Notes: generated by a model from the sequence alone, not told the origin. Counted from the stretch's first letter, positions 3,035-42,752 are shown. The stretch is DNA of 64,000 nt from Candidatus Spongiihabitans sp. (GCA_965237725.1 OZ250151.1:2435086-2499085); one strand, 5' to 3'. Translations and numbers: made by a program.

Positions 3035-3886
3035 TTAGTTTTGAAACGCTGATAACACCGCTTCCTGGCTAGGTATTTTGCTCGCGCTATACCCCAATCG
3101 CCCTGGTTGCTTGATTTCGCTATCGTACATTAGTGTAGCCGCGCCGGGCACCGGTAATTGTAGCTGCACACCACAAACATTTTCCAATTCGCTTTGAGGG
3201 TCTCGGTCGAATAACCCGGTAACGTCACTTTGCCAACTATGATGATTGAGATCAACAAACAAATTGGCATGATTCATGTTGTATCGTATCCCCACGCCAA
3301 GAACTTTGCCATAAGCTTCTTTTCTGGTCCAAGCGGCTAGCATGGCATCATTACGCCCGGATTCTGGCACCGTGTCCCAACTGGATATTTCCTCAGCTGA
3401 CAGAATTCGCTTGGCCATTGCCTCATAGCTGATTTTGCGCGGAAATATTTCTAGATCCACACCCAACGCACGATTCCAGGCGATGCCATACAACGCATGC
3501 CCCATTGACAAGGTATAGTTGAAAGTCAGTTCACCTTGTTCCACCGCGTTCATCAGTTTTGGCTTGCCGCGTTGTCCGTATCCGAACGCCAGATCCTGAT
3601 TGTCAATACCGGTATATCCGGACATCAGAGCGCGCAAACCTATCCTGCCACCGAGGTACAGCTGGCGGTGGTGTTTGCTGATTATTCCCATGGATCGGGA
3701 AATTTCCCCATCACCGAGCAAGTCTTGCGGGTTATATAGGTCGGATCCGAAAACCTTATTTAGGTCAAGCAGCCAGAGATGAATTTCATTTTCCCTCAAT
3801 TGCCGATCCATGCTGGCGATTTGCCAATTCAGATTCCGCTCAGCTACAGCCGACGCCGAATTACCATGTGTCAAATATCGGTCCAA
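3035..3886 (-). CDS. 4'-phosphopantetheinyl transferase (Sfp/EntD-type)
   Basis: 283 aa. RGKPKL, GVDLE and WTRKEAYGKVLGVG motifs of the PPTase superfamily. The true start may be the internal ATG at 3811 (MDRQLRENEIHLWLLDL). Confidence 0.75.
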   Translation of the reverse strand: MDRYLTHGNSASAVAERNLNWQIASMDRQLRENEIHLWLLDLNKVFGSDLYNPQDLLGDGEISRSMGIISKHHRQLYLGGRIGLRALMSGYTGIDNQDLAFGYGQRGKPKLMNAVEQGELTFNYTLSMGHALYGIAWNRALGVDLEIFPRKISYEAMAKRILSAEEISSWDTVPESGRNDAMLAAWTRKEAYGKVLGVGIRYNMNHANLFVDLNHHSWQSDVTGLFDRDPQSELENVCGVQLQLPVPGAATLMYDSEIKQPGRLGYSASKIPSQEAVLSAFQN

Positions 3887-4088
3887 AATTATTTATTTGT
3901 GCGAGGGCTGTTTCTTCTACCGAGGCATCATACCCTTTTTGCTTTTTCTCAATGATGCGATGTTGCAAACCCTGCTTGTCGAACAAATAAGTTGTCGAAG
4001 ACAGATGTAATTCCACCACAAACCCCTCTCCGGGAATATTGTATATCCCGCCAAGTTCCGCCGTTTCACTTATGTCGATTTCAGTCAC
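3861..4088 (-). CDS. Small hypothetical protein (75 aa)
   Basis: ORF only, with no recognisable motif. It overlaps the long version of the PPTase ORF but not the 3811 start. It lies between MITE-1 and the PPTase gene. Confidence 0.25.
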   Translation of the reverse strand: MTEIDISETAELGGIYNIPGEGFVVELHLSSTTYLFDKQGLQHRIIEKKQKGYDASVEETALAQINNFGPIFDTW

Positions 4089-4109
4089 TAATACTTCAAC
4101 CTGATTGTT

Positions 4110-4306
4110 CTAAGGAGCCTCTGATTAAAACTGGGCAGATCAAGTTGCCACTTATAAATGGCACTGGGAAAATGATCAAGTTCAAGGCGCGAAACGCACG
4201 CCCAAGTCAAATAAGCTTGGGCACGGCTATTGCGAAGTTTTGCAACGCAGAAATTGATCATTTTAAACGCAAATTGACTGTTCATGTTTTGATCAGAGGC
4301 TCCTTA
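4110..4306. mobile_element. MITE-1: non-autonomous element with ~20-bp terminal inverted repeats and flanking TA
   Basis: Left end TA-AGGAGCCTCTGATTAAAAC, right end GTTTTGATCAGAGGCTCCT-TA (20/21 inverted match). The interior shares ctgggc.gatcaagtt and aaaatgatcaag.tcaaggc blocks with MITE-2/3. No coding capacity. Confidence 0.6.
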
Positions 4307-5854
4307 ACGTAAAAACAGACTATACACCGGATTTTCAGTTTCTTCGCGGTAAGCATATCCGAGCTGTTTTAAAAATGCGTTGAATGCCCCCCGACTGGCA
4401 TTTGGCACCTGGATTCCACACAACACCCGACCAAAGTCCGAGCCATGGTTTCGATAATGAAATAATGTGATATTCCAGCTTGTGCCGATTTGATCGAGAA
4501 AATTTCCCAATGCCCCGGGGCGCTCTGGAAACTCGAAGCTGAAAATCCGCTCATTGGTCAGTTCGGGCACCCGTCCCCCAACCATATACCGCCCATGGAT
4601 CTTGGCAAGCTCGTTGTCGGTCAGATCGATGCTGGGTATTCCCCGGGATTCGAGTTTCTTAATTAATTCTCCAATTTCATTGAGTTTCTTGATTTGCACA
4701 CCAAGAAATATGTGGGCTTCTTTGTCATTGGAATATCGATAATTAAATTCCGACACACTTCGTTTACCCAGTGCACGATAGAAACGTCGAAAACTGCCCC
4801 GGGATTCGGGAATGGTAACCGCGATTATCGCCTCTCGTTTTTCCCCAATCTCGGCGCGTTCTGATACATGCCTTAATCGATCAAAGTTCATATTTGCACC
4901 GGAGGCAATGGCAACCAGGCTCATCCGAGCGGGTTTCTTTTTATTCGAATGAATGCCATAACCATTGTCTTTCATCCAGCGTTTGATCCCGGCAATGCCC
5001 AATGCACCGGATGGCTCTACAATTGTCCGGGTGTCTTCACATATATCTTTGATTGCTGCACACAATTCATCCGTAGAAACTCTAACCACTTCATCAACAA
5101 AGTCCCGGCAAATTTTAAAATTTTCCTTGCCAACCTGTTTGACCGCCACACCGTCGGCAAAAATTCCGACTTTTTTCAGAACCACTCGTTTGTTCGCTTT
5201 CAATGATTGATACAGGGCATCAGATTCATAAGGTTCAACACCAATAACCTTAATCTCTGGCCGCAATTGCTTGATATAGGCGGCAACCCCTGAAATCAAT
5301 CCGCCGCCGCCAACCGGCACAAAAACCGCATCCAGACTGCTCGGGTGTTGTTTCAAAATTTCCAGCCCTACAGTGCCCTGGCCGGCGATAATCAACGGGT
5401 CATCAAATGCACTGATAAACACCCGCTTCTGCTTTTTACACACCAACTGCGCATAGTCATAGGCTTCCTGATAGGAATCCCCGGTTAATTTAATTTTTGC
5501 CCTCCATTGTCGTACTGCCTCAACTTTTATGGTTGGCGTGGTAACCGGCATAACGATGAGCGCTTCACAACCCAGCTGCCGGGCGCTCATGGCAACACCC
5601 TGGGCATGGTTTCCCGCTGAAGCCACAACCACCCCGCGAGACAGTTCCCTGGGGCTCAGGCTGATCATTTTATTGTATGCGCCGCGAATTTTGTAACAGA
5701 AAATTGGCTGGGTATCTTCGCGCTTCAGGAAAACGTTTGCGCCCAGACGATCAGACAAGCGTTGAGCCTGATCCAAATCGGTTTCCTTGGCCACCTCGTA
5801 GACCCTGGAATTGAGTATGGCCTTAAGATAGTTTGCTGGATAGTCCTTTGACAT
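4304..5854 (-). CDS. ilvA: Threonine ammonia-lyase (biosynthetic threonine dehydratase)
   Basis: 516 aa. FLKREDTQPIFCYKIRGAYNKM PLP-lysine motif, GNHAQGVA, and a C-terminal pair of ACT-like regulatory domains of the length typical for IlvA. Confidence 0.95.
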   Translation of the reverse strand: MSKDYPANYLKAILNSRVYEVAKETDLDQAQRLSDRLGANVFLKREDTQPIFCYKIRGAYNKMISLSPRELSRGVVVASAGNHAQGVAMSARQLGCEALIVMPVTTPTIKVEAVRQWRAKIKLTGDSYQEAYDYAQLVCKKQKRVFISAFDDPLIIAGQGTVGLEILKQHPSSLDAVFVPVGGGGLISGVAAYIKQLRPEIKVIGVEPYESDALYQSLKANKRVVLKKVGIFADGVAVKQVGKENFKICRDFVDEVVRVSTDELCAAIKDICEDTRTIVEPSGALGIAGIKRWMKDNGYGIHSNKKKPARMSLVAIASGANMNFDRLRHVSERAEIGEKREAIIAVTIPESRGSFRRFYRALGKRSVSEFNYRYSNDKEAHIFLGVQIKKLNEIGELIKKLESRGIPSIDLTDNELAKIHGRYMVGGRVPELTNERIFSFEFPERPGALGNFLDQIGTSWNITLFHYRNHGSDFGRVLCGIQVPNASRGAFNAFLKQLGYAYREETENPVYSLFLR

Positions 5855-9611: not shown

Positions 9612-10988
9612 CTAAAAGAAGGTTGCGGACACCTGAAACAGTTTTTCGACGTCGGGAATTTTTCGCTTATCGATGACAAATATAATCACATGATCGCCAT
9701 CTTCAATCACAACATCATCGTCCAGGCTAAGCAATTCATTGGCGCGCATGATCGCCCCAATGGTTGCGCCTTTGGGCAGTTTTATATCGGCCAGTTTACG
9801 GCCTACTATTTTTGATGTCTTTTTATCGCCGTGGGCCACGGCCTCTATGGCCTCAGCTACACCGCGGCGAAGAGAATGCGCCGCCACCACATCTCCTCGT
9901 CTTACATGGGATAACAATGCACTCACCGTACTCAACCGCGGTGAAATTGCGATATCCAACACGCTGCTTTCGATTAGCTCAATGTAAGCCGCACGATTGA
10001 CGATGGCCATTGCACGCCTGGCACCCAGTCTTTTGGCCAGCATTGCAGATAAAATATTCGCTTCATCTTCATTGGTCAGCGAGCAAAACAATTCCATACC
10101 ATCTATATTTTCCTGAACCAGTAAATCTTCGTCTGCGGCGTCACCGTGTAACACTACGGTATTTTCGAGCTGCTCGGAAACTCGTCGTGCGCGCATCGCA
10201 TCACGTTCAATTAATTTAACCTTAAATCCACGGCTCTCCAGTGACTTCGCCAGTCCAGCGCCAATATTGCCTGCGCCGGCGATCATCACCTTCTTGCCAC
10301 CTTCCTCGATGCTGCGAAGTTCCTGCATCACCTTTTTAATATCTTCCTGGGTAGCAATGAAAAACACTTCATCATCCGCTTCGATAATGGTTTTACCCGT
10401 GGGGATAATTGCCCGGTCATGTCGGTATATCGCCGCCACACGGGTTTTAACCGAAGGCAAATGATCCTTGAGATCTTTTAGTTCGTGACCAACCAGTGCG
10501 CCGCCGTGGAACGCTTTTAGTCCCACCAGCCGAATTTTCCCACCGGCAAAATCGATAACCTGCAATGCCCCAGGATACTCAATCAGGCGTTGGATTTGAT
10601 TGGTAAGAATTTGCTCGGGACTGATTAATACATCGATGGGGATGGATTCTTTACAGAACAACTCAGGGTGGTCGAGAAAATCAGAGGATCGCACCCGGGC
10701 AATTTTAGTTGGGGTATGAAACAAAGTATGGGCAACCTGGCATGCGACCATGTTGACCTCGTCAGAATTGGTCACCGCCAGCAGTAAATCCACGTCATCA
10801 ACCCCTGCCTGTTTAAGCACTTCGGGGGATGCTGCATTGCCCTGCACCGTTCGAATATCCATTCGATCCTGCATCATATTAAGCACATCGCGATCCTCAT
10901 CGATGACGGTAATGTCATTTTCTTCTCTGGAAAGAATTTCAGCGATTGATGCCCCTACCGTACCGCCGCCAAGAATGGCAATTTTCAT
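9612..10988 (-). CDS. trkA: Trk-system potassium uptake protein TrkA (tandem RCK/NAD-binding domains)
   Basis: 458 aa. MKIAILGGGTVG and a second IAGAGNIG Rossmann motif. Reads as collinear with E. coli TrkA. Confidence 0.95.
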   Translation of the reverse strand: MKIAILGGGTVGASIAEILSREENDITVIDEDRDVLNMMQDRMDIRTVQGNAASPEVLKQAGVDDVDLLLAVTNSDEVNMVACQVAHTLFHTPTKIARVRSSDFLDHPELFCKESIPIDVLISPEQILTNQIQRLIEYPGALQVIDFAGGKIRLVGLKAFHGGALVGHELKDLKDHLPSVKTRVAAIYRHDRAIIPTGKTIIEADDEVFFIATQEDIKKVMQELRSIEEGGKKVMIAGAGNIGAGLAKSLESRGFKVKLIERDAMRARRVSEQLENTVVLHGDAADEDLLVQENIDGMELFCSLTNEDEANILSAMLAKRLGARRAMAIVNRAAYIELIESSVLDIAISPRLSTVSALLSHVRRGDVVAAHSLRRGVAEAIEAVAHGDKKTSKIVGRKLADIKLPKGATIGAIMRANELLSLDDDVVIEDGDHVIIFVIDKRKIPDVEKLFQVSATFF

Positions 10989-17400: not shown

Positions 17401-18162
17401 ATGACGAAAAACAATAAACGGCACAACACTAAATCGGAATCATACAATTCCGCTGAACAAGGCATCCAGCAGGCTTTAGAGAACAGCGCCATCCCGGATT
17501 CAGAAATGCTGGAGAATTTACATTTATTTATCTCTCCCCAGCAGATGCGGCGGATTTTGTTTCTGTATGAAGTCTACAAACAAATTGTCACCGTGCCCGG
17601 GGTAATCATGCAATTTGGTGTGCGCTGGGGACGAGAGATGGCGCTATTCGAAAGTCTGCGCACGACTTTTGAGCCATTTAATCACAGCCGAAAGATCATT
17701 GGATTTGATACTTTTTCTGGCTACCAGGGGGTTGACTCCAAAGACGGTGGTCACAAGGTCATGCAAGACGGCAACCTGACCACCACCAGTAATTATGAGG
17801 ACGAACTGGAAAAAATTCTGACTCTTAGAGAGCAGCTAAGCCCTATCCCCCATGTCAAAAAATTTCAACTGATCAAAGGCAATGCAGAGGAAACCCTGGA
17901 AAAATACCTTGAAGAAAATCCCCAGACCATAATTTCCCTGGCTCACCTGGACATGAATCTGTATCGACCCACCAAAAAATGCCTGGAGTTACTGAAACCC
18001 AATATGCCAAAAGGCGCCATCGTTATTATCGACGAGGTCAATCTCGACATGATGCCGGGTGAAACCATTGCGCTGAAAGAGGTTTTTGGAATCAACAAGA
18101 TTCGTCTGCAACGAGACTCCCATGTCAATCCAACCTGGCCTGCTTATTTCGTAATCGAATAG
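17401..18162 (+). CDS. TylF/MycF-family SAM-dependent (sugar) O-methyltransferase
   Basis: 253 aa. GVIMQFGVRWGREMALF, FDTFSGY and LAHLDMNLYRPTKKCLELLKPNMPKGAIVIIDE match the TylF-type pattern (ECGV.rG / DsFeG / D.DlYesT). Confidence 0.75.
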   Translation: MTKNNKRHNTKSESYNSAEQGIQQALENSAIPDSEMLENLHLFISPQQMRRILFLYEVYKQIVTVPGVIMQFGVRWGREMALFESLRTTFEPFNHSRKIIGFDTFSGYQGVDSKDGGHKVMQDGNLTTTSNYEDELEKILTLREQLSPIPHVKKFQLIKGNAEETLEKYLEENPQTIISLAHLDMNLYRPTKKCLELLKPNMPKGAIVIIDEVNLDMMPGETIALKEVFGINKIRLQRDSHVNPTWPAYFVIE

Positions 18163-30431: not shown

Positions 30432-32450
30432 CTAACGCCGCTTACGTCGTCGTGGCCTTGCGCCTTCTTTTTCTTCGCTGCCACCTGAGCTCGGCTCCGG
30501 TAAATCAACTTCTTTTTTCAGGTTTACGAAATCTGCGGTTTTATGGGGTATAGCCAGGGCTTCAACAAAATGATCCTGAAATTTGGGCTCTATGGCCGTT
30601 TCCACTTTCTGGATACGCTTTACCACATCTTCAATTTCATGCCGGGCATCGATGTCGAGCAGAGTAATAGTCGCGCCCGTACCCGCGGCGTTTCCCGCAG
30701 AAGTCACATGCTCGAGCTCACAGTCCGGAATCATGCCCAGTACCATGGCATATTTTACGTCGATGTGTGCACCAAACGCCCCAGCCAACCTGATTCTGTC
30801 TACCGTATCTATATTTAATTTATCCATTAGCAATCGGGCGCCGGCGTACAGCGCTGACTTGGCCAGTTGGATGGCGCGGACGTCGTTCTGGGTAATCACT
30901 ACTTTCACCGAACCCTGATCATAAAGGTTGTAGCTCCAGGTCTTTTCGTCAGCAATTACCCGTGGGGATTTATTCGACATGGCGCCATCGATGACACCAT
31001 CGGTTTTGATTATTCCAGCCAGAAACATCTCTGCAATGACTTCAATTATTCCGGAACCACAAATACCGGTGACACCAATATCCGCAGTGGCCTGTTCAAA
31101 TCCCGGCTCATCGGACCAGACCTCGCTACCGATTACGCTGAATCGGGGCTCCAGTGTATCCCTGTCTATTCTTACTCGTTCAATGGCGCCGGGAGCAGCG
31201 CGTTGACCGCCGCTGATTTGAGCGCCTTCGAAGGCCGGTCCCGTGGGACTCGACGCCGCCACCATTTTTTTATTGTTGCCCAGTACAATTTCCGCATTTG
31301 TTCCCACATCCACCAGCAGGGTGAGTTCATCCCGCTCATAGGGTGCTTCGGACAGGGTCGCCGCAGCGGCATCAGCACCCACATGCCCGGCGATACAAGG
31401 CAGGATATACGCCCGGGCACCCGGATTTACATTTAGATCAAGATCAGAGGCTTTAATGTTTAAAGCGCCGTCGGTGGCCAGAGCAAAAGGTGCGCCACCG
31501 AGTTCCACAGGATTAATCCCGAGCAACAAATGATGCATCACCGGATTGCCCACAAGGGTCATATCCACTACATCGTTGATATCAACATCGACCTCTTCAA
31601 CCAGTTCTTTAAACAGACCTTGCAATGCTTCACGCACCGCAATGGTCATATCCACCTCACCACCCGGATTCATCATCACATAGGAAACCCGGCTCATCAG
31701 GTCTTCGCCAAACCGAATCTGTGGATTCATCCGGCCGGTAGAATTTATCGCCTCACCGCTGATCAGATCACACAAATGTGCCGCAATGGTGGTTGAACCG
31801 ACGTCAACCGCAACCCCATAGACTTTATTTTTTATCCCGGGCCAGATGGCAATGGCCTGGCGTTCATTGTGGATGGCTAAGGTCACTTTCCAGTCACCTT
31901 GACGCAAAACCGTTTGCAGCGATCCCAGTAAATGAAAATCAACTTCAATATCGGTTAGTCCCCAATCGAACTCCAGGGCATCGAGCATGCGTTGCAGATC
32001 GCCGGTGGGATCGTGCATATTCGGTTCCGGCACTTCAACATAATGTAATCTTACCGATGGGTTGACGGTTATATTATGCACATCCAGTCGTTTGCGGACG
32101 ACCTGGCGATGGGCCTGGCTTTCCGGCGGAATATCGATAACCACATCCCCCACCAGTTTGGCCTGGCATCCCAGACGCCGGGTGGACTTTGTTCCATCGG
32201 GGAAAAATTCTTTCTCGCTTTCGCTTCGGGGAGACAGATGCTCTGGGTTGGAATGAATTTTAAACTTGGCAAATTCACCCACGCTATGGTCGATCTGGCA
32301 GCGATCACAAATGCCTCGACCACCGCATACCGTATCCAGGTCAACGCCGAGCTGTTGTGCCGCTTCCAGCACCGACTTGCCCACAGCGATGTCGCCGTGC
32401 TTTCCGGAAGGGGTGAAAACAACCTGGACGGTTGTATCCTGGTTGCTCAT
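30432..32450 (-). CDS. Reductive activator of corrinoid enzymes (RACo/RamA-like; N-terminal 2Fe-2S ferredoxin + ASKHA ATPase domain)
   Basis: 672 aa. Plant-type ferredoxin Cys cluster (CGGRGICDRCQ), a central/C-terminal ASKHA-fold region (VDVGSTTIAAHL, LVDVGTNAEIV), and a basic tail ARPRRRKRR. Confidence 0.85.
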   Translation of the reverse strand: MSNQDTTVQVVFTPSGKHGDIAVGKSVLEAAQQLGVDLDTVCGGRGICDRCQIDHSVGEFAKFKIHSNPEHLSPRSESEKEFFPDGTKSTRRLGCQAKLVGDVVIDIPPESQAHRQVVRKRLDVHNITVNPSVRLHYVEVPEPNMHDPTGDLQRMLDALEFDWGLTDIEVDFHLLGSLQTVLRQGDWKVTLAIHNERQAIAIWPGIKNKVYGVAVDVGSTTIAAHLCDLISGEAINSTGRMNPQIRFGEDLMSRVSYVMMNPGGEVDMTIAVREALQGLFKELVEEVDVDINDVVDMTLVGNPVMHHLLLGINPVELGGAPFALATDGALNIKASDLDLNVNPGARAYILPCIAGHVGADAAAATLSEAPYERDELTLLVDVGTNAEIVLGNNKKMVAASSPTGPAFEGAQISGGQRAAPGAIERVRIDRDTLEPRFSVIGSEVWSDEPGFEQATADIGVTGICGSGIIEVIAEMFLAGIIKTDGVIDGAMSNKSPRVIADEKTWSYNLYDQGSVKVVITQNDVRAIQLAKSALYAGARLLMDKLNIDTVDRIRLAGAFGAHIDVKYAMVLGMIPDCELEHVTSAGNAAGTGATITLLDIDARHEIEDVVKRIQKVETAIEPKFQDHFVEALAIPHKTADFVNLKKEVDLPEPSSGGSEEKEGARPRRRKRR

Positions 32451-36263: not shown

Positions 36264-36827
36264 TTAAACTTTCACATTCTGGATGATTTTAAACAGATTG
36301 CCTTTTCCGGCTTTGAGTTCTTCTTCGCTTAAGTCCTGAACTTCGTGGGGAAAAACCAACCATTTATCGGTATTTCGCAAATAATAATCCGGCTCCCGAT
36401 CGGTTTTGTTGTTACCCGGCTTAAACCATGGCGCCGCAACCTTGATCTGTGACGGCGTATTTTTTCGAGTCCGCGCGGTGAGCTGCTCGATAACCGCTTT
36501 GATGCTGCGACCGGAGTCATAGACGTCATCCACTATTAACAATGCATTTTCCGAATTGAGGTTCTTGACCAGATAATCCAGGCCATGAACCCGGACTTTT
36601 TTGCTGGTAGACGAGATACCGGTGTATAACGAAGTCCGAACACTGATGTGGTCGGTGGAAATTCCAAAATATTCCAGCATTTCCTGGATCGCAATGCCTA
36701 CTGGTGCGCCGCCACGCCAGATGCCGACAATAAAATCGGGACGAAACCCGCTTTCAATGATCTGGCTGCCAAGCTGGTAGGAATCCTCGAGCAACTCCTG
36801 GGCGCTAATATAATGTTTTTCGGACAT
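36264..36827 (-). CDS. Phosphoribosyltransferase family protein (purine PRTase-like)
   Basis: PRPP motif LLIVDDVYDSGRS. The ORF track extends to 36896, but ATG 36827 (MSEKHYISAQELL) fits the family N-terminus better. Confidence 0.8.
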   Translation of the reverse strand: MSEKHYISAQELLEDSYQLGSQIIESGFRPDFIVGIWRGGAPVGIAIQEMLEYFGISTDHISVRTSLYTGISSTSKKVRVHGLDYLVKNLNSENALLIVDDVYDSGRSIKAVIEQLTARTRKNTPSQIKVAAPWFKPGNNKTDREPDYYLRNTDKWLVFPHEVQDLSEEELKAGKGNLFKIIQNVKV

Positions 36828-37068
36828 AGAAGATGACAGGTTGTAGTCGGTTAGATGATTTCTGGCTGCAATACCATTTCCCATTGAGTGTATCAATTGA
36901 GCCCGAATAATACGATGGTGTTTAAACTAACAAACAGAAATCTAATTCTGAAATCTGGGGAAAATCTGGGGACATAATACTCAATTAAAAACGAACGGGA
37001 TGGCGCTTATAATTATTGTTTATTGTGTCACCAGGATACTCTCTCGAATTCAATGGCTGGGAAATATA

Positions 37069-37155
37069 TGGTACCCGGGGCCGGACTTGAACCGGCACGA
37101 TGTTTCCATCGAGGGATTTTAAGTCCCTTGCGTCTACCAATTCCGCCACCCGGGC
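37069..37155 (-). tRNA. leuZ: tRNA-Leu (anticodon UAA)
   Basis: Minus strand GCCCGGGTGGCGGAATTGGTAGACGCAAGGGACTTAAAATCCCTCGATGGAAACATCGTGCCGGTTCAAGTCCGGCCCCGGGTACCA. It has a long variable arm, a CTTAAAA anticodon loop and an encoded CCA, and is close to E. coli leuZ. Confidence 0.92.
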
Positions 37156-37590
37156 ATTAGGGCTAATTTGCGTTAGGCCTGATAGTGCCTTTAAAACAAA
37201 CTGTAGACGCAGGCGTCTACTCATATCAACTTGGCCACCACCAAAACATTGTAGGTCTGATAGCACCTTGACTGCGAATTGTAGACGCTTGCGTCTACGC
37301 TTACCATTTTTGGCCACCACCCGGGCATTAGGGCTAATTTGCGTTAGGCCTGATAGTGCCTTTAAAACAAACTGTAGACGCAGGCGTCTACTCATATCAA
37401 CTTGGCCACCACCAAAACATTGTAGGTCTGATAGCACCTTGACTGCGAATTGTAGACGCTTGCGTCTACGCTTACCATTTTTGGCCACCACCCGGGCATT
37501 AGGGCTAATTTGCGTTAGGCCTGATAGTGCCTTTAAAACAAACTGTAGACGCAGGCGTCTACTCATATCAACTTGGCCACCACCCGGTAC
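37146..37590. repeat. Tandem repeat, 171-bp unit x ~2.6; copies are identical by eye; built of tRNA-Leu 5'-half-like sub-units with GTAGACGC/GCGTCTAC hairpins
   Basis: The anchor cattag recurs at 37155, 37326 and 37497 (period 171). Five perfect 8+8 inverted repeats lie at 37203-20, 37281-98, 37374-91, 37452-69 and 37545-62. The first copy overlaps nt 1-10 of tRNA-Leu. Confidence 0.92.
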
Positions 37591-37627
37591 TATCCGTTAG
37601 CGCGTAATAAACCAATGAAAATAAAAA

Positions 37628-37701
37628 TGGAGGCTGAGCCCGGAATCGAACCGAGGTCAACGGCTTTGCAGGCCGCTGCATAACCACTCTGCCACTCAGC
37701 C
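37628..37701 (-). tRNA. cysT: tRNA-Cys (anticodon GCA)
   Basis: Minus strand GGCTGAGTGGCAGAGTGGTTATGCAGCGGCCTGCAAAGCCGTTGACCTCGGTTCGATTCCGGGCTCAGCCTCCA. Cloverleaf with a CTGCAAA anticodon loop. Confidence 0.92.
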
Positions 37702-37757
37702 CCAGAATCGATACCAGTGCGCTTCTATAACAAAGTCTGGCTACGCATGAATCAAAA

Positions 37758-37832
37758 TGGAGCGGGAAACGAGATTCGAACTCGCGACCCCAACCTTGGC
37801 AAGGTTGTGCTCTACCACTGAGCTATTCCCGC
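37758..37832 (-). tRNA. glyW: tRNA-Gly (anticodon GCC)
   Basis: Minus strand GCGGGAATAGCTCAGTGGTAGAGCACAACCTTGCCAAGGTTGGGGTCGCGAGTTCGAATCTCGTTTCCCGCTCCA. Nearly identical to E. coli glyW as I recall it. Confidence 0.92.
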
Positions 37833-37902
37833 ATATATGGCATAGTGAACATGAGGGGTGTTGATTCTATGCACGCATTGACAACTGTCAATAGCTATCC
37901 GG

Positions 37903-38496
37903 TTATTTTGCCACAATATCGTTCTTTTCAAGCAGAAACGGCATGGCTGCGCGCAAATAAACCCACATCGACCAGATTGTCAGTACGGCAGCGACATAAA
38001 ATGCTATCTCCCCAATTCTGAAAATTGGTATGCCATAAATTGGAATGCCGTATAGCAAAATCCCGATAGACACCATTTGAAAAACGGTTTTTATCTTTCC
38101 GAGGGGGCCAACGGCGACATATCCGCGCTCCCCAAGCTCTGCCATCCACTCCCGCAGCGCAGAAATGACAATTTCCCGGCCAATAATGATACAAACCGCA
38201 ATGGCAAAAGGCAGGGGATGTAATACTTTATGCAGGACATTGAGATCTGAAACCAGTAATACCAGAGCAGTGGAAACAATCAACTTATCCGCCACGGGAT
38301 CGAGAAATGCCCCCAATTTGGACATGGCATTGAGTTTCCTTGCCAGATAACCATCGAGCCAGTCGGTTATTGCCGCGAGGACAAATACCCCACAAACCAG
38401 GATTTCTCGATTTTTTTCGACCCAGAAATACACAACTACCAGTACGGGTATGAGCAAAATTCTAAATAATGTCAGCAGATTTGGAATATTGAGCAT
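37903..38496 (-). CDS. pgsA: CDP-diacylglycerol--glycerol-3-phosphate 3-phosphatidyltransferase
   Basis: 197 aa. CDP-alcohol phosphatidyltransferase motif DWLDGYLARKLN...GAFLDPVADK. uvrC-pgsA-tRNA order as in E. coli. Confidence 0.95.
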   Translation of the reverse strand: MLNIPNLLTLFRILLIPVLVVVYFWVEKNREILVCGVFVLAAITDWLDGYLARKLNAMSKLGAFLDPVADKLIVSTALVLLVSDLNVLHKVLHPLPFAIAVCIIIGREIVISALREWMAELGERGYVAVGPLGKIKTVFQMVSIGILLYGIPIYGIPIFRIGEIAFYVAAVLTIWSMWVYLRAAMPFLLEKNDIVAK

Positions 38497-38614: not shown

Positions 38615-40456
38615 TCATGAATGAAATTGATTGTATATACGTTGGGCCAATGTTGGGCTGATCCCCTGTACTTTGGTCAGGTCTTCTACGCCGGCACGCT
38701 TGATTTCCTGCATGCCACCAAAATATCGGAGCAGATTTCGTCGCCTTTTATCCCCGACACCATCAATGTTCTCCAGGGGTGACGATGTCCTGGCTTTGGA
38801 ACGCTGCTGGCGATGGCTGGTAATGGCAAATCGGTGAGCTTCATCCCGGATACGCTGGACCAGATGAGAAGCTGCGGAAGTGCCTTTGGGCTGAATGGGA
38901 TTTTTTCTATGCAGCAAATGAAACTGTTCCTCACCGGCCTTGCGCAGCGGCCCCTTTGAAACTCCCATTAATATAACCGCGTCCACAATTTGTAATTCTT
39001 CAAACACTTTTTGGGCAATGCCAAGCTGACCCTTACCGCCATCGATCAAAACCAGATCGGGCAACTTACCGTCGTTCTCAATAACCCGTTGGTACCGACG
39101 GGTCAACACTTGCTCCATGGCGGCGTAATCATCGCCACCCTGAATTCCTGTGATGTTATAGCGCCGATAGTCTGACTTAACCGCGCCCTGATCATCGAAT
39201 ACAACGCAGGAACCCACCGTGCGCTCGCCCATGGTATGGCTGATATCAAAACATTCGATTCGTCCCGGCACTTCATCGAGTTTCAACAAATCTGCAAGGG
39301 CGGCAAACTGGGCCGTAATCTGGCTGCGTTCATTTAGATGTCGCCGCAGGTTATCCGCGGTATTAATCCGCGCAGATTCAATCCAGCGTGCGCGGTAGGA
39401 TCGACATTGTTGTTTGATTTCAACTTTGGATTTGTTCTCAATGGAAAAAACCTGCTGTAGCGAACTTCGGCTTTCGATATTCTCGCTCAACAAAATCTCG
39501 GGCGGAATCACACGACCGAGATAGTTCTGGGGCAGGAAGGCTTCGAGCAATTGCGACTCGGTAAGATCGAGGGGATTTTTCTGAATGTGAAAGCGTGCGC
39601 CCAAATTGCGGCCATTCCTGATGGATACCACACCAAAACAAACCAGCCCGGACTCCGCTGCCACCGCCACTACGTCAGCATCATTGGAATCCGAAGACAC
39701 ATATTGTTTTTCACGAATTCGTTGCAATAGGGCGATGCGATCACGATATAGCGCCGCGGTTTCAAAGCTCAATTCTGATGAGGCGGTTTCCATTCTATTG
39801 CTGAGCTCGTCCATCAATTTGGAATCTTCACCGGCCAGCATGGCCTTTGCCTGACGAATATCCTCCAGATAATCTTTTTGTTCGATGCGACCAACGCAGG
39901 GTGCGCTGCAACGTTTGATCTGATGCTGCAAACAAGGCCGTGAACGGTTTCTGAAAAAAGCATCGTCACACTGACGCAGCTGAAAAATTTTGTTTAAATG
40001 GCCCAGCATTTCACGTACCGCTCCAGCGTTAGGATAGGGGCCATAATATTTCCCCGGCCGTGACCGACGACCACGATAAAATCCAAATCGCGGAAAGGCA
40101 TCGTCTTCGGTCAGACGAATATAGGGGAAACTTTTATCATCGCGCAGAGAAATATTGTAACGTGGGCGTTTGTCCTTGATCAGATTGTTTTCCAGTAACA
40201 GCGCTTCGCTTTCTGTGCGCGTCTGCTGAGTCTCAGCATTGGCAATTTTGGACACCATCAGCTGGGTCTTTGGCGTCAGTCCGGTGCTCCTGAAATAACT
40301 CTGCAATCGCTTTTTCAAATTTCGGGCTTTGCCAACGTAAAGGGCTTTGCCTTCGTTATCATAAAACACATAGACACCAGGCATCGCGGAAGCGGTTTCC
40401 AGAAAAGTTTTTGAATCAAAATCCGAATTTGAGTTTTCAGTAGCGGAATCGGTCAA
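38615..40456 (-). CDS. uvrC: Excinuclease ABC subunit C
   Basis: 613 aa. N-terminal GIY-YIG (PGVYVFYD...ALYVGKA), a UVR domain, an RNase H-like endonuclease domain and a C-terminal HhH. Confidence 0.95.
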   Translation of the reverse strand: MTDSATENSNSDFDSKTFLETASAMPGVYVFYDNEGKALYVGKARNLKKRLQSYFRSTGLTPKTQLMVSKIANAETQQTRTESEALLLENNLIKDKRPRYNISLRDDKSFPYIRLTEDDAFPRFGFYRGRRSRPGKYYGPYPNAGAVREMLGHLNKIFQLRQCDDAFFRNRSRPCLQHQIKRCSAPCVGRIEQKDYLEDIRQAKAMLAGEDSKLMDELSNRMETASSELSFETAALYRDRIALLQRIREKQYVSSDSNDADVVAVAAESGLVCFGVVSIRNGRNLGARFHIQKNPLDLTESQLLEAFLPQNYLGRVIPPEILLSENIESRSSLQQVFSIENKSKVEIKQQCRSYRARWIESARINTADNLRRHLNERSQITAQFAALADLLKLDEVPGRIECFDISHTMGERTVGSCVVFDDQGAVKSDYRRYNITGIQGGDDYAAMEQVLTRRYQRVIENDGKLPDLVLIDGGKGQLGIAQKVFEELQIVDAVILMGVSKGPLRKAGEEQFHLLHRKNPIQPKGTSAASHLVQRIRDEAHRFAITSHRQQRSKARTSSPLENIDGVGDKRRRNLLRYFGGMQEIKRAGVEDLTKVQGISPTLAQRIYNQFHS

Positions 40457-40459
40457 AAC

Positions 40460-41119
40460 TTATTCTCTCAATTCCCGGGCAATGGTTTTGAATACATCGT
40501 GGAACATGGACTCGGTTAATCGCTTTGTCTGGGTATTGTATCTGCTGCAATGATAACTGTTAATTAACTTGATGCCGTTGTCCAGAGCATGCACCTGGTT
40601 ATGACCGAATTTATATTGATTCAATTTATAACCATAAGAACGTAACAAAGAGCGGTGGGCCAGGCCGCCAAGGGCGAGGATAATTTTCAAATCGGTCTGG
40701 GCGATTTCGGCGGTCAAAAAATGATTGCAGTTTTTTTCTTCATCACCTACGGGTTTATTTTGGGGCGGCAAGCATTTTACCGCATTGGTTATTCGGCAGT
40801 TGGTTAAGCATAATTCATCCTCGGCATGGCTGGATTGTGGATGGGAGGCATAGCCAAACTTATGCAAGGTTTCATACAGCAACACGCCGGCATAATCTCC
40901 GGTAAATGGTCGGCCCGTTGCATTGGCGCCATGTTTACCCGGCGCGAGCCCCACAACCAGCAACTGTGCCTGGGGATCACCAAATGGCGGCACAGGCTTA
41001 CAAAAATAATCACTATGCTCGGCCTTGACCGCATCCAGAAACTCACTCAGTCGTGGGCATTGTCGACAATCGGCGTCATACCACTGATCTGGCATTGCCG
41101 GGTTGTTGCCTGATGTCAT
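40460..41119 (-). CDS. Uracil-DNA glycosylase superfamily protein, Fe-S family 4/5 type (UdgB-like GLAPG motif)
   Basis: CRQCPRL and LLVVGLAPGKHGANATGRPFTGDYAG motifs. The ORF track extends to 41200, but I prefer ATG 41119 (MTSGNNPAMPDQW), which avoids overlap with the efp start region. Confidence 0.8.
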   Translation of the reverse strand: MTSGNNPAMPDQWYDADCRQCPRLSEFLDAVKAEHSDYFCKPVPPFGDPQAQLLVVGLAPGKHGANATGRPFTGDYAGVLLYETLHKFGYASHPQSSHAEDELCLTNCRITNAVKCLPPQNKPVGDEEKNCNHFLTAEIAQTDLKIILALGGLAHRSLLRSYGYKLNQYKFGHNQVHALDNGIKLINSYHCSRYNTQTKRLTESMFHDVFKTIARELRE

Positions 41120-41171
41120 TGTGAATACAATCCTCCCCTCATTAAATTGCTCAACCACTGGAATAAGCCTC

Positions 41172-41732
41172 ATGAAAATCTCAGCCTTCGAAACCCGCAT
41201 CGGTAACCTGATGGAGTATCAGGGTAAATTGTGGCGTATCCTCAAGAAAAACCACGTCAAACCCGGCAAGGGCGGTGCATTTGTCCAGCTTGAGATGAAG
41301 TGTATCAGTGATGGCACCAAACTCAATGAGCGATTTCGGTCAGAGGAAAAAATGGACAAAGCCCATGTGGAACCGCGCAATATGCAATACCTTTATCTCG
41401 ACGGCGAAAACTATGTATTCATGGATAATGAAAGTTATGAACAGATGACTATTTCTGCTGATGACCTGGAAGCCGAGGCGCCCTATTTATTGCCCAATAC
41501 CGATGTGCAGATCAATTTTCATGACGACAACCCCATTGGCGTTGAGCTGCCTCAATGGGTGGCCTTGGAAGTGGTGGAAACCGATGGGGTGGTCAAAGGC
41601 CAAACCGCATCAGGCAGTGGCAAACCCGCCACACTGGAAACCGGTCACAAGGTCACCGTGCCGACGTTCATAACCGTGGGTGAGAAAGTCAAAGTCAATA
41701 CCGATACTGGGGAGTATATGGAAAGGGCGTAA
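41172..41732 (+). CDS. efp: Elongation factor P
   Basis: 187 aa from ATG 41172 (MKISAFETRIGNLMEYQGKLW...); the track's upstream extension is unlikely. The KPGKGGAFVQ loop carries the conserved Lys. Three-domain EF-P length. Confidence 0.9.
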   Translation: MKISAFETRIGNLMEYQGKLWRILKKNHVKPGKGGAFVQLEMKCISDGTKLNERFRSEEKMDKAHVEPRNMQYLYLDGENYVFMDNESYEQMTISADDLEAEAPYLLPNTDVQINFHDDNPIGVELPQWVALEVVETDGVVKGQTASGSGKPATLETGHKVTVPTFITVGEKVKVNTDTGEYMERA

Positions 41733-41755
41733 CAGTGATTGATTAATGGTTCCCG

Positions 41756-41917
41756 GATATTGCTGCGCAATTCCGGGATGACGTCGAGGATATCGCTTCG
41801 CAATTCCGGGATGACGTCGAGGATATCGCTGCGCAATTCCGGGATGACGGTGGGGGATATTGCTGTGCGATTCTGGGATGACGGTGAGGGATATCACAGT
41901 GTGATTCCAGGAGGACG
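41756..41917. repeat. Tandem repeat, 33-34-bp unit x ~5 (GATATYGCTGCGCAATTCCGGGATGACGTCGAG)
   Basis: Units at 41756-88, 41789-821, 41822-55, 41856-89 and 41890-917 decay progressively toward the right. It begins 24 bp after the efp stop. Confidence 0.88.
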
Positions 41918-42083: not shown

Positions 42084-42752
42084 TTAATCGTTGTCATTAA
42101 GCCCAGCACCTGCACCGGCAAGGCGTGACGCTTCGCTGGCTTCCACATAAGTGCGATGGGCATAAATTTCCAGCTGCTTCCAGGATTTTAGATTTACTTC
42201 AGCATCACCAATGTTCATAGGAATGTCTTTGGTATCCGCCGATATAGAAATTTGGGTATAGCTGATTTGGCCCACCAATTTCATATCAATATCTTCTGTG
42301 TTCCCAGTTACCACAAGCACGTCGCGGTTGAGCTGCATGGTCACCGACGACCATTTCAGCGCCACAGACTGGTCCGAGGTTAACGCCGTCTGACCTAAAA
42401 ATCCTGCAGTGATTAACGGCCATGCAATGGGCCCGACCGTAATGGTTCGCTCCGCCATTGTGTTAATGCAGTCACACAGACTAATACCCGCCATAATTGG
42501 GCTAAGCACACCCCGCTGGCTGGTCCAGATTCCCTCCAGGGATTGGGGCGCATAGTCCAGGTGATGGTGATGATCGTATTCCTCAAACAATCCACATAAA
42601 CTGGTCACACCATCAAATCCATAAACATGCAACCAGCGTATGGCCTTGCCTACTTCGTCAGCGATACCCCAGGGCAGACCACAGCCTTTGGCCGCCTTGC
42701 GGCAGGTGTGTTCAATTTCGCCCAGGGAACGCATATTCTTTGACTTGCTCAA
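42084..42752 (-). CDS. Hypothetical protein (reminiscent of DUF3726-type proteins; unverified)
   Basis: 222 aa from TTG 42752, which overlaps the upstream stop, or 216 aa from ATG 42734 (MRSLGEIEHTCRKAAKGCGLPWGIADEVGKAIRWL). No catalytic motif recognised. Confidence 0.5.
   Translation of the reverse strand: MSKSKNMRSLGEIEHTCRKAAKGCGLPWGIADEVGKAIRWLHVYGFDGVTSLCGLFEEYDHHHHLDYAPQSLEGIWTSQRGVLSPIMAGISLCDCINTMAERTITVGPIAWPLITAGFLGQTALTSDQSVALKWSSVTMQLNRDVLVVTGNTEDIDMKLVGQISYTQISISADTKDIPMNIGDAEVNLKSWKQLEIYAHRTYVEASEASRLAGAGAGLNDND

Follow-up and report, generated by a model that had tools for sequence, protein, structure and literature searches.

We propose that a tandem duplication in two steps, specific to this lineage and started by an incomplete copy of the tRNA-Leu 5′ part, probably gave rise to the array between the tRNA-Cys and tRNA-Leu genes of this genome, and that the array would be transcribed and then discarded as spacer. 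It lies on the minus strand in a tRNA operon whose surroundings, uvrC-pgsA-tRNA(Gly-Cys-Leu), are found in the window (the whole stretch of DNA analysed, 64,000 nucleotides, on which positions are counted), in four related genomes and in E. coli K-12. No relative has a PgsA more than 83% identical to that of the window, and Candidatus Spongiihabitans, a genus among the closest PgsA matches, belongs to the Arenicellales. In the order of transcription, the locus comprises:

38615-40456, minus strand: uvrC
37903-38496, minus strand: pgsA
37864-37891, minus strand: sigma-70-type promoter between the pgsA stop codon and tRNA-Gly, TTGACA-16-TAGAAT, 11/12 matches in a pattern scan
37758-37832, minus strand: tRNA-Gly(GCC), first gene of the operon (ARAGORN and Rfam, 71.9 bits)
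37628-37701, minus strand: tRNA-Cys(GCA), second gene (ARAGORN and Rfam, 63.8 bits)
37590-37627, minus strand: unique AT-rich leader (about 38 nt), which opens the Cys-Leu spacer ahead of the array and is neither repeated nor part of the Tandem Repeats Finder array
37069-37155, minus strand: tRNA-Leu(UAA), intact (ARAGORN and Rfam, 57.5 bits)

The tRNA-Leu(UAA) gene differs by 1-7 nt from the tRNA-Leu genes of relatives, and past it lie a phosphoribosyltransferase gene and then B12-binding/DUF1638 genes.

From the coordinates of tRNA-Cys and tRNA-Leu, the spacer between them measures 472 bp, in line with the roughly 470 bp that a sequence-only reading of this DNA had assigned to it within the same conserved minus-strand operon. 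Tandem Repeats Finder places a single array at 37146-37584 with a period of 171 bp, 2.6 copies, 100% matches, 0% indels and a score of 878, well ahead of every other tandem repeat in the 64-kb window (the runner-up scores 194). The periodicity continues into the tRNA-Leu gene, perfectly for 10 nt and for 13 nt with one C/T mismatch, so that the array is seamlessly fused to the gene, as that reading had described. Its figure of 445 bp of perfect 171-bp repeat in 2.6 copies is right as to the identity of the copies, but the 445 bp include about 10 that are part of the tRNA gene. Along the direction of transcription the order is the leader, A1-B1-A2-B2-A3 and tRNA-Leu, and each 171-bp unit consists of two diverged sub-units, as had been noticed, although their sizes are 92 nt (A) and 79 nt (B) rather than 93 and 78:

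37498-37589, minus strand: sub-unit A1 (92 nt), with hairpin 37545-37562 followed by a AGTTTGTTTT tail, and second stem 37517-37532; 61.9 bits to the A/B profile
37419-37497, minus strand: sub-unit B1 (79 nt), starting GCCCGGGTGGTGG, with hairpin 37452-37469 and second stem 37424-37439
37327-37418, minus strand: sub-unit A2, with hairpin 37374-37391
37248-37326, minus strand: sub-unit B2, with hairpin 37281-37298
37156-37247, minus strand: sub-unit A3, with hairpin 37203-37220

A and B are clearly homologous (z=17.9) and share a common layout, in which the head GGTGGTGGCCAA and a linker of 10-11 nt are followed by a perfect 8+8 palindrome, a 10-nt linker and a second small stem-loop, AAGG-YR-CTATCAG-R-CCTA; the tails of A differ from those of B. 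The 18-nt palindrome GTAGACGC-NN-GCGTCTAC occurs five times against 0.02 expected, which agrees with the five perfect inverted repeats counted by the sequence-only reading, and GGTGGTGGCCAA also occurs five times (0.44 expected), with all copies of both inside the array. The palindrome folds into a 7-bp stem with a 4-nt loop (-9.6 kcal/mol). At the boundaries, the A1 head CCGGGTGGTGGCCAA is the same as the B head, and CCGGGTGG begins the A1 head, every B head and tRNA-Leu, whereas A2 and A3 begin TTTTGGTGG because they are preceded by a B tail. The A3 tail, ...CCCTAAT, adjoins the real tRNA-Leu exactly as A tails adjoin B heads.

Two phantom open reading frames run over the repeat, as the sequence-only reading had noted and put down to a period divisible by three, and neither matches a Pfam family:

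36985-37566, minus strand: phantom ORF of 193 aa, Arg/Lys-rich and repetitive (...NARVVAKNGKRRRKRLQFAVK...), which traverses the tRNA-Leu gene
37100-37600, plus strand: second phantom ORF

The first of these stays open only because 171 = 3 x 57. A further tandem repeat in the window, a 33-bp unit in 4.9 copies with 85% matches (41755-41917, consensus GGATATCGCTGCGCAATTCCGGGATGACGTCGA), is intergenic, lying between efp (41103-41732, plus strand), which ends just upstream of it, and a convergent ORF (42084-42752), and is covered only by phantom ORFs.

The earlier inference that the 5′ region of the neighbouring tRNA-Leu gave rise to the units is supported, since the array keeps the register of the gene and is continuous with it, and a global alignment of the B head with tRNA-Leu gives z=7.2, a value reached by 0/500 shuffles. 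The start of B, GCCCGGGTGGTGG, corresponds to tRNA-Leu nt 1-13 with one mismatch and is followed by a 10-nt expansion in the D-loop region and then by GTAGACGCAAG, which is identical to nt 19-29. Over nt 1-29 the head thus aligns at 13/14 nt, an insertion and 11/11 nt, so that the gapped copy of the tRNA 5′ part recognised earlier stands, with its segment extended from nt 1-27 to nt 1-29. The hairpin region of B is also aligned by the repeat finder (family D3) in register with tRNA-Leu nt 19-41 at 78% identity over 23 nt and so reaches into the anticodon arm. Sequence beyond the hairpin loop of B, GCGTCTA-CAATTC, equals the reverse complement of tRNA-Leu nt 13-26 at 13/14 positions (z=4.0). 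The palindrome is therefore best read as the tRNA D-arm joined to an inverted copy of itself, which we infer would be the footprint of a fold-back or template-switch event.

The resemblance ends with the 5′ part of the gene: neither A nor B resembles the 3′ half of tRNA-Leu in its own 3′ part (z 0.3-1.5), and in the region 36500-38300 the Rfam tRNA model at E<=10 matches only the three real tRNA genes and no array unit. The units are therefore tRNA fragments and not decayed whole genes. Full-length tRNA pseudogenes or tRNA-like structures were considered as an identity for the sub-units and rejected, given that these do not match the tRNA model, have 3′ parts unlike tRNA and fold no better than shuffles. 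Since A and B share derived changes relative to the tRNA, their common ancestor postdates the tRNA-derived step. A source for the non-tRNA parts of the unit was sought elsewhere in the 64-kb window and yielded just 9-11 nt chance matches, and an ancestral native spacer as the origin of the A tail was discarded for want of homology to the spacers of relatives.

Further copies of the unit were sought in several sequence collections and, within the source genome, in the 64-kb window. Exact motifs, blastn-short and an nhmmer profile of A and B all give zero copies in the window outside the array; with that profile the five sub-units score about 62-64 bits, and the best matches elsewhere in the window have E>=4.6, one of them being the true tRNA D-arm. 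Across 185,579 species genomes the hairpin core gave 71 singleton matches in unrelated phyla, about the number expected by chance, none of them with unit-like flanks or near a tRNA-Leu gene. The head-plus-hairpin pattern found 20 chance singletons and nothing else in metagenomes, viral contigs yielded nine chance singletons only, and phages and plasmids gave no match (blastn, distant mode). The sequence-only reading had named the occurrence of the unit at many non-tRNA loci as the finding that would speak against it, and in all of these collections the outcome was negative.

These searches bear directly on whether the array could be a dispersed REP/REPIN- or MITE-like element that was inserted and amplified beside the tRNA, its resemblance to the gene being coincidental. 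The palindromes of REP elements in the RAYT/REPIN literature have a GTAG...CTAC character, and the core of the array is similarly a short, perfect, intergenic palindrome that starts with GTAG and ends with CTAC. The array palindrome is, however, not dispersed in anything searched: there is no copy outside the array within the 64-kb window, no genome among the 185,579 species has more than one chance hairpin match, and none has one with unit-like flanks. Moreover, its arm is the D-arm of the adjacent tRNA, and the homology of the heads to that tRNA is highly significant and in register with the gene. We therefore consider such an element very unlikely. No transposase is among the flanking genes that were annotated. 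Other repeat classes were also set aside. A CRISPR array does not fit since the sequences between the palindromes are themselves perfectly repeated at the 171-bp period and leave no unique spacers, and for integron attC sites and retrons the spacers are likewise not unique and the associated genes are absent. We know of no match between the palindrome and the MetJ, LexA or other operator consensus sequences.

For comparison we used four related gammaproteobacterial genomes (L001, L004, L006 and L007) with PgsA sequences 77-80% identical to that of the window, all of which share the arrangement UDG-uvrC-pgsA-tRNA(Gly, Cys, Leu). Their Cys-Leu spacers measure 130 bp (L001), 28 bp (L004), 159 bp (L006) and 20 bp (L007), and none of the four contains a tandem repeat or has detectable similarity to A, B or the leader. 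The array, known from one genome, is thus lineage-specific and evolutionarily young as judged by its absence from these four relatives. Because the unit was found nowhere else and the spacers of the relatives are unrelated to it, the array is, as far as testable, neither a REP/MITE family nor the scar of a mobile element.

Separate observations concern the operons of relatives. In L004 (GCA_001543005.1, contig LFLB01000008.1), a 1.6-kb insertion at 3751-5385 separates tRNA-Gly from tRNA-Cys. It holds two called genes, one of 285 aa and one of 155 aa, neither of which belongs to a Pfam family, and the latter resembles a small membrane protein; the 2-kb gap past pgsA in this genome had been a candidate for a larger array and is accounted for by this unrelated insertion. 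The tRNA operon spacers of the clade are evidently hotspots for insertion and length change. Two Logan short-read contigs from a relative with an 80%-identical PgsA (L008 and L009) both stop about 100 bp past pgsA, at the start of the tRNA operon, a position in keeping with a tendency of short-read assemblies to break at tRNA or repeat sequence. Metagenome assemblies may therefore under-sample arrays like this one.

The sequence-only reading had also raised site-specific recombination, in which case the fragments would be att-site duplications left by a decayed or deleted integrative element in tRNA-Leu. Tandem partial copies beside a complete tRNA gene do recall such events, since the partial tRNA copies of att duplications are also direct repeats and, among documented origins of partial tRNA gene copies in prokaryotes, mobile-element integration is the commonest (PMC9897764). 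Integration, however, leaves one partial and one complete copy with a kb-scale element between them (PMC9897764), whereas here there are five fragments at spacings of 79-92 bp, all from the 5′ end, with only 79-171 bp between copies and neither integrase nor cargo. The ORFs of the array match no family, the genes on either side match those of relatives so that synteny is intact, and nothing similar appeared in the phage, plasmid or viral collections. The fragments left by integrative elements are normally 3′ fragments, with integrases typical. On these grounds we find the suggestion unsupported and regard it as most improbable.

We give equally little credence to the possibility that the assembler or a polishing step made the array or altered its copy number. 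A single assembly exists, and consensus polishing of a repeat would likewise be expected to leave its copies perfectly identical. The source contig, however, is chromosome-scale (4.41 Mb), and mis-assembly is not expected to yield two sub-units that have diverged from each other, an A1 head unlike those of A2 and A3, and an unbroken run into an intact tRNA gene. Assemblers tend to collapse tandem repeats and not to invent them.

The statement that no element of this kind had been described does not hold, because E. coli carries a comparable array. On the sequence of E. coli K-12 we found a 178-bp repeat in 3.1 copies with 95% matches downstream of tyrT-tyrV, fused to the 3′ end of tyrV, in which each unit ends with AATCCTTCCCCCACCACCA, the 3′-terminal 19 nt of tRNA-Tyr. 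Annotation at this locus lists the sRNA rttR and a 'protamine-like' ORF, tpr, and the RtT model RF00391 has four matches there (133-137 bits), one of them in the internal tyrT-tyrV spacer. The tyrT repeats yield RtT/rttR RNA (PMC3318445).

The two systems are alike in several respects. Both are tandem arrays within a tRNA operon, co-oriented with a tRNA gene and seamlessly fused to it, of similar size and copy number (178 bp x 3.1 in E. coli, 171 bp x 2.6 here), and in both each unit holds a fragment of the adjacent tRNA; one RtT copy likewise occupies an internal spacer, both have an Arg-rich ORF of doubtful reality, and GGTGGTGG is present in each unit of both. They differ in that there is no homology of sequence or structure between them, and RF00391 has no match at E<=10 on 36500-38300 (membership cut-off 45 bits). 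In arrangement they are mirror images, the array here lying upstream and carrying the 5′ part of its tRNA, the E. coli units carrying the 3′ part. Furthermore, the copies are 100% identical here against 95% in E. coli, the unit is a composite of A and B with a palindromised D-arm, and it is the E. coli array that is annotated as yielding an RNA, rttR. The array thus resembles the RtT kind in its architecture and probably in its origin, without belonging to that family. The tpr ORF of the tyrT repeat is Arg-rich (MRSFDQGSTRAPARERCRRQRPEGRSAQR; L101 788-877, minus strand), and the Arg-rich ORFs of both arrays are probably a by-product of G+C-rich hairpin sequence and not evidence of coding.

The shared motif GGTGGTGG occurs in every sub-unit of the array, in the majority orientation, and in every unit of the E. 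coli tyrT repeat. A Chi-type octamer, GNTGGTGG, is found 23 times in the window against 8.6 +/- 3.5 expected, with 20/23 copies on the minus strand and a ratio of 15 minus to 3 plus when the five array copies (within 37235-37584) are left out; examples elsewhere lie at 2016-2023, 10523-10530, 17780-17787 and 31310-31317. Chi is GCTGGTGG in E. coli and GNTGGTGG in H. influenzae. If GNTGGTGG were the Chi site of this organism, the array would be a local cluster of recombination hotspots, although gene orientation could be an alternative cause of the strand bias.

The sole strong promoter match lies upstream of tRNA-Gly, so that transcription is expected to include the array as an internal spacer. 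In the sense orientation each A hairpin is followed by AGTTTGTTTT, giving three terminator-like sites, one per A sub-unit, with a 7-bp stem of -9.6 kcal/mol and the tail AGUUUGUUUU; these are consensus matches only, and shuffles contain 1.5 +/- 1.3. An overlapping weak resemblance to a promoter, TTGATA-18-TACAGT (9/12 positions), is present in each A sub-unit too, again as a consensus match only. For the suggested roles of decoy, promoter or processing signal, the sequence offers no more than such weak matches. Between tRNA-Leu and the phosphoribosyltransferase gene (36900-37068), a pattern scan found no terminator-like hairpin. Single sub-units fold no better than shuffles (z -0.1 to -1.6), and for the whole array the z of -5 stems from the capacity of its repeated palindromes to pair with each other.

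A comparison of A with B gives a different kind of hint. Their alignment matches in 48/70 columns. The matches fall in perfect blocks (12, 8, 9 and 7 nt), between which the linkers have essentially no identity, and a permutation test for this clustering gives P=0.0003-0.003. The second stem reads AGGC/GCCU in A and AGGU/ACCU in B, a compensatory double change by which the closing pair is C-G in the former and U-A in the latter; its chance probability is about 0.02, a rough and post hoc estimate. With two sequences to compare, block-wise matches and a compensatory change would be more typical of constrained modules than of neutral decay, and segmental replacement of the linkers could alternatively have produced the block pattern.

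Since this pattern is not what uniform neutral decay predicts, we keep open a reading in which the array is retained because its transcript or structure acts, although we think it unlikely. Two versions may be envisaged: the spacer may give rise to one or more stable RNAs, like RtT from the tyrT repeats or 3′ETS-leuZ, or it may be an attenuator tunable by copy number, in which the hairpin-plus-U-tract motifs of A lower transcription into tRNA-Leu(UAA). The block-wise conservation, the compensatory change and the three sense-orientation terminator-like sites are in keeping with such roles. There are also precedents, as the tyrT repeats encode rttR (PMC3318445) and the orthologous E. coli operon, glyW-cysT-leuZ, carries the annotated regulatory RNA 3′ETS-leuZ, a spacer-derived sRNA sponge according to the account of Lalaouna et al. 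(2015) given in PMC8166272. The latter demonstrates that functional RNAs can come from the transcribed tRNA spacers of this operon, but it is a single 53-nt 3′ external spacer that is neither repeated nor derived from a tRNA, whereas the array is an internal spacer; Rfam detected no equivalent of it here.

Against a function stand the absence of the array from every relative examined and of a homologue from every collection searched, the lack of an Rfam match, and the folding results, in which single sub-units do no better than shuffles and the whole-array z of -5 comes from pairing between palindromes. In addition, the terminator and promoter matches are to weak consensus only, and the conservation argument is post hoc and drawn from two sequences. 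The specific proposal that five structured sub-units would be freed from the tRNA precursor as stable RNA, and/or that three hairpins would form a tunable attenuator of variable copy number, is in our view distinctly unlikely. No stable RNA derived from an internal transcribed spacer (ITS) had been reported (PMC8166272), and were the proposal true, this would be the first ITS-derived regulatory RNA; as an attenuator, the array would set the supply of tRNA-Leu(UAA) through its expansion and contraction.

We therefore favour tandem duplication from the tRNA-Leu 5′ part, for which we infer the following order of events. In an older first step, a segment reaching from the upstream spacer to about nt 30-40 of tRNA-Leu(UAA) would have been duplicated in tandem, the D-loop region of this partial copy replaced or expanded, and the sequence past the D-arm converted by fold-back or template switch to the exact complement of the D-arm, creating GTAGACGC-NN-GCGTCTAC. 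The resulting proto-unit would then have been duplicated again, its two copies diverging into sub-units A and B. In the second step the 171-bp A+B pair would have been amplified to A-B-A-B-A, which is taken to be recent because the copies are 100% identical. The recent amplification already suspected from this identity is upheld, in that such copies are either young or homogenised and the array is absent from the four relatives. The second step probably proceeded by slippage or unequal exchange on the direct repeats CCGGGTGG / GGTGGYGG, which head A1, every B and tRNA-Leu, followed by exchange on the 171-bp homology. The 472-nt internal spacer would be transcribed from the operon promoter and presumably removed when RNase P cuts at tRNA-Leu +1. 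The array most likely has no required function and its copy number should be unstable, while the three hairpin-plus-U-tract motifs may slightly lower read-through into tRNA-Leu.

Tandem arrays seeded by tRNA fragments in tRNA operons are thus not confined to E. coli tyrT, and can also form 5′ of a tRNA gene, within an internal spacer. If the spacer RNA were stable, or if the hairpins attenuate, the locus would exemplify a class that has yet to be documented, the regulatory internal tRNA spacer. Clean and very young, with perfect copies that sit on an older pair of diverged sub-units, the array is useful for studying the birth of such arrays through partial gene duplication, a fold-back palindrome and then unequal exchange.
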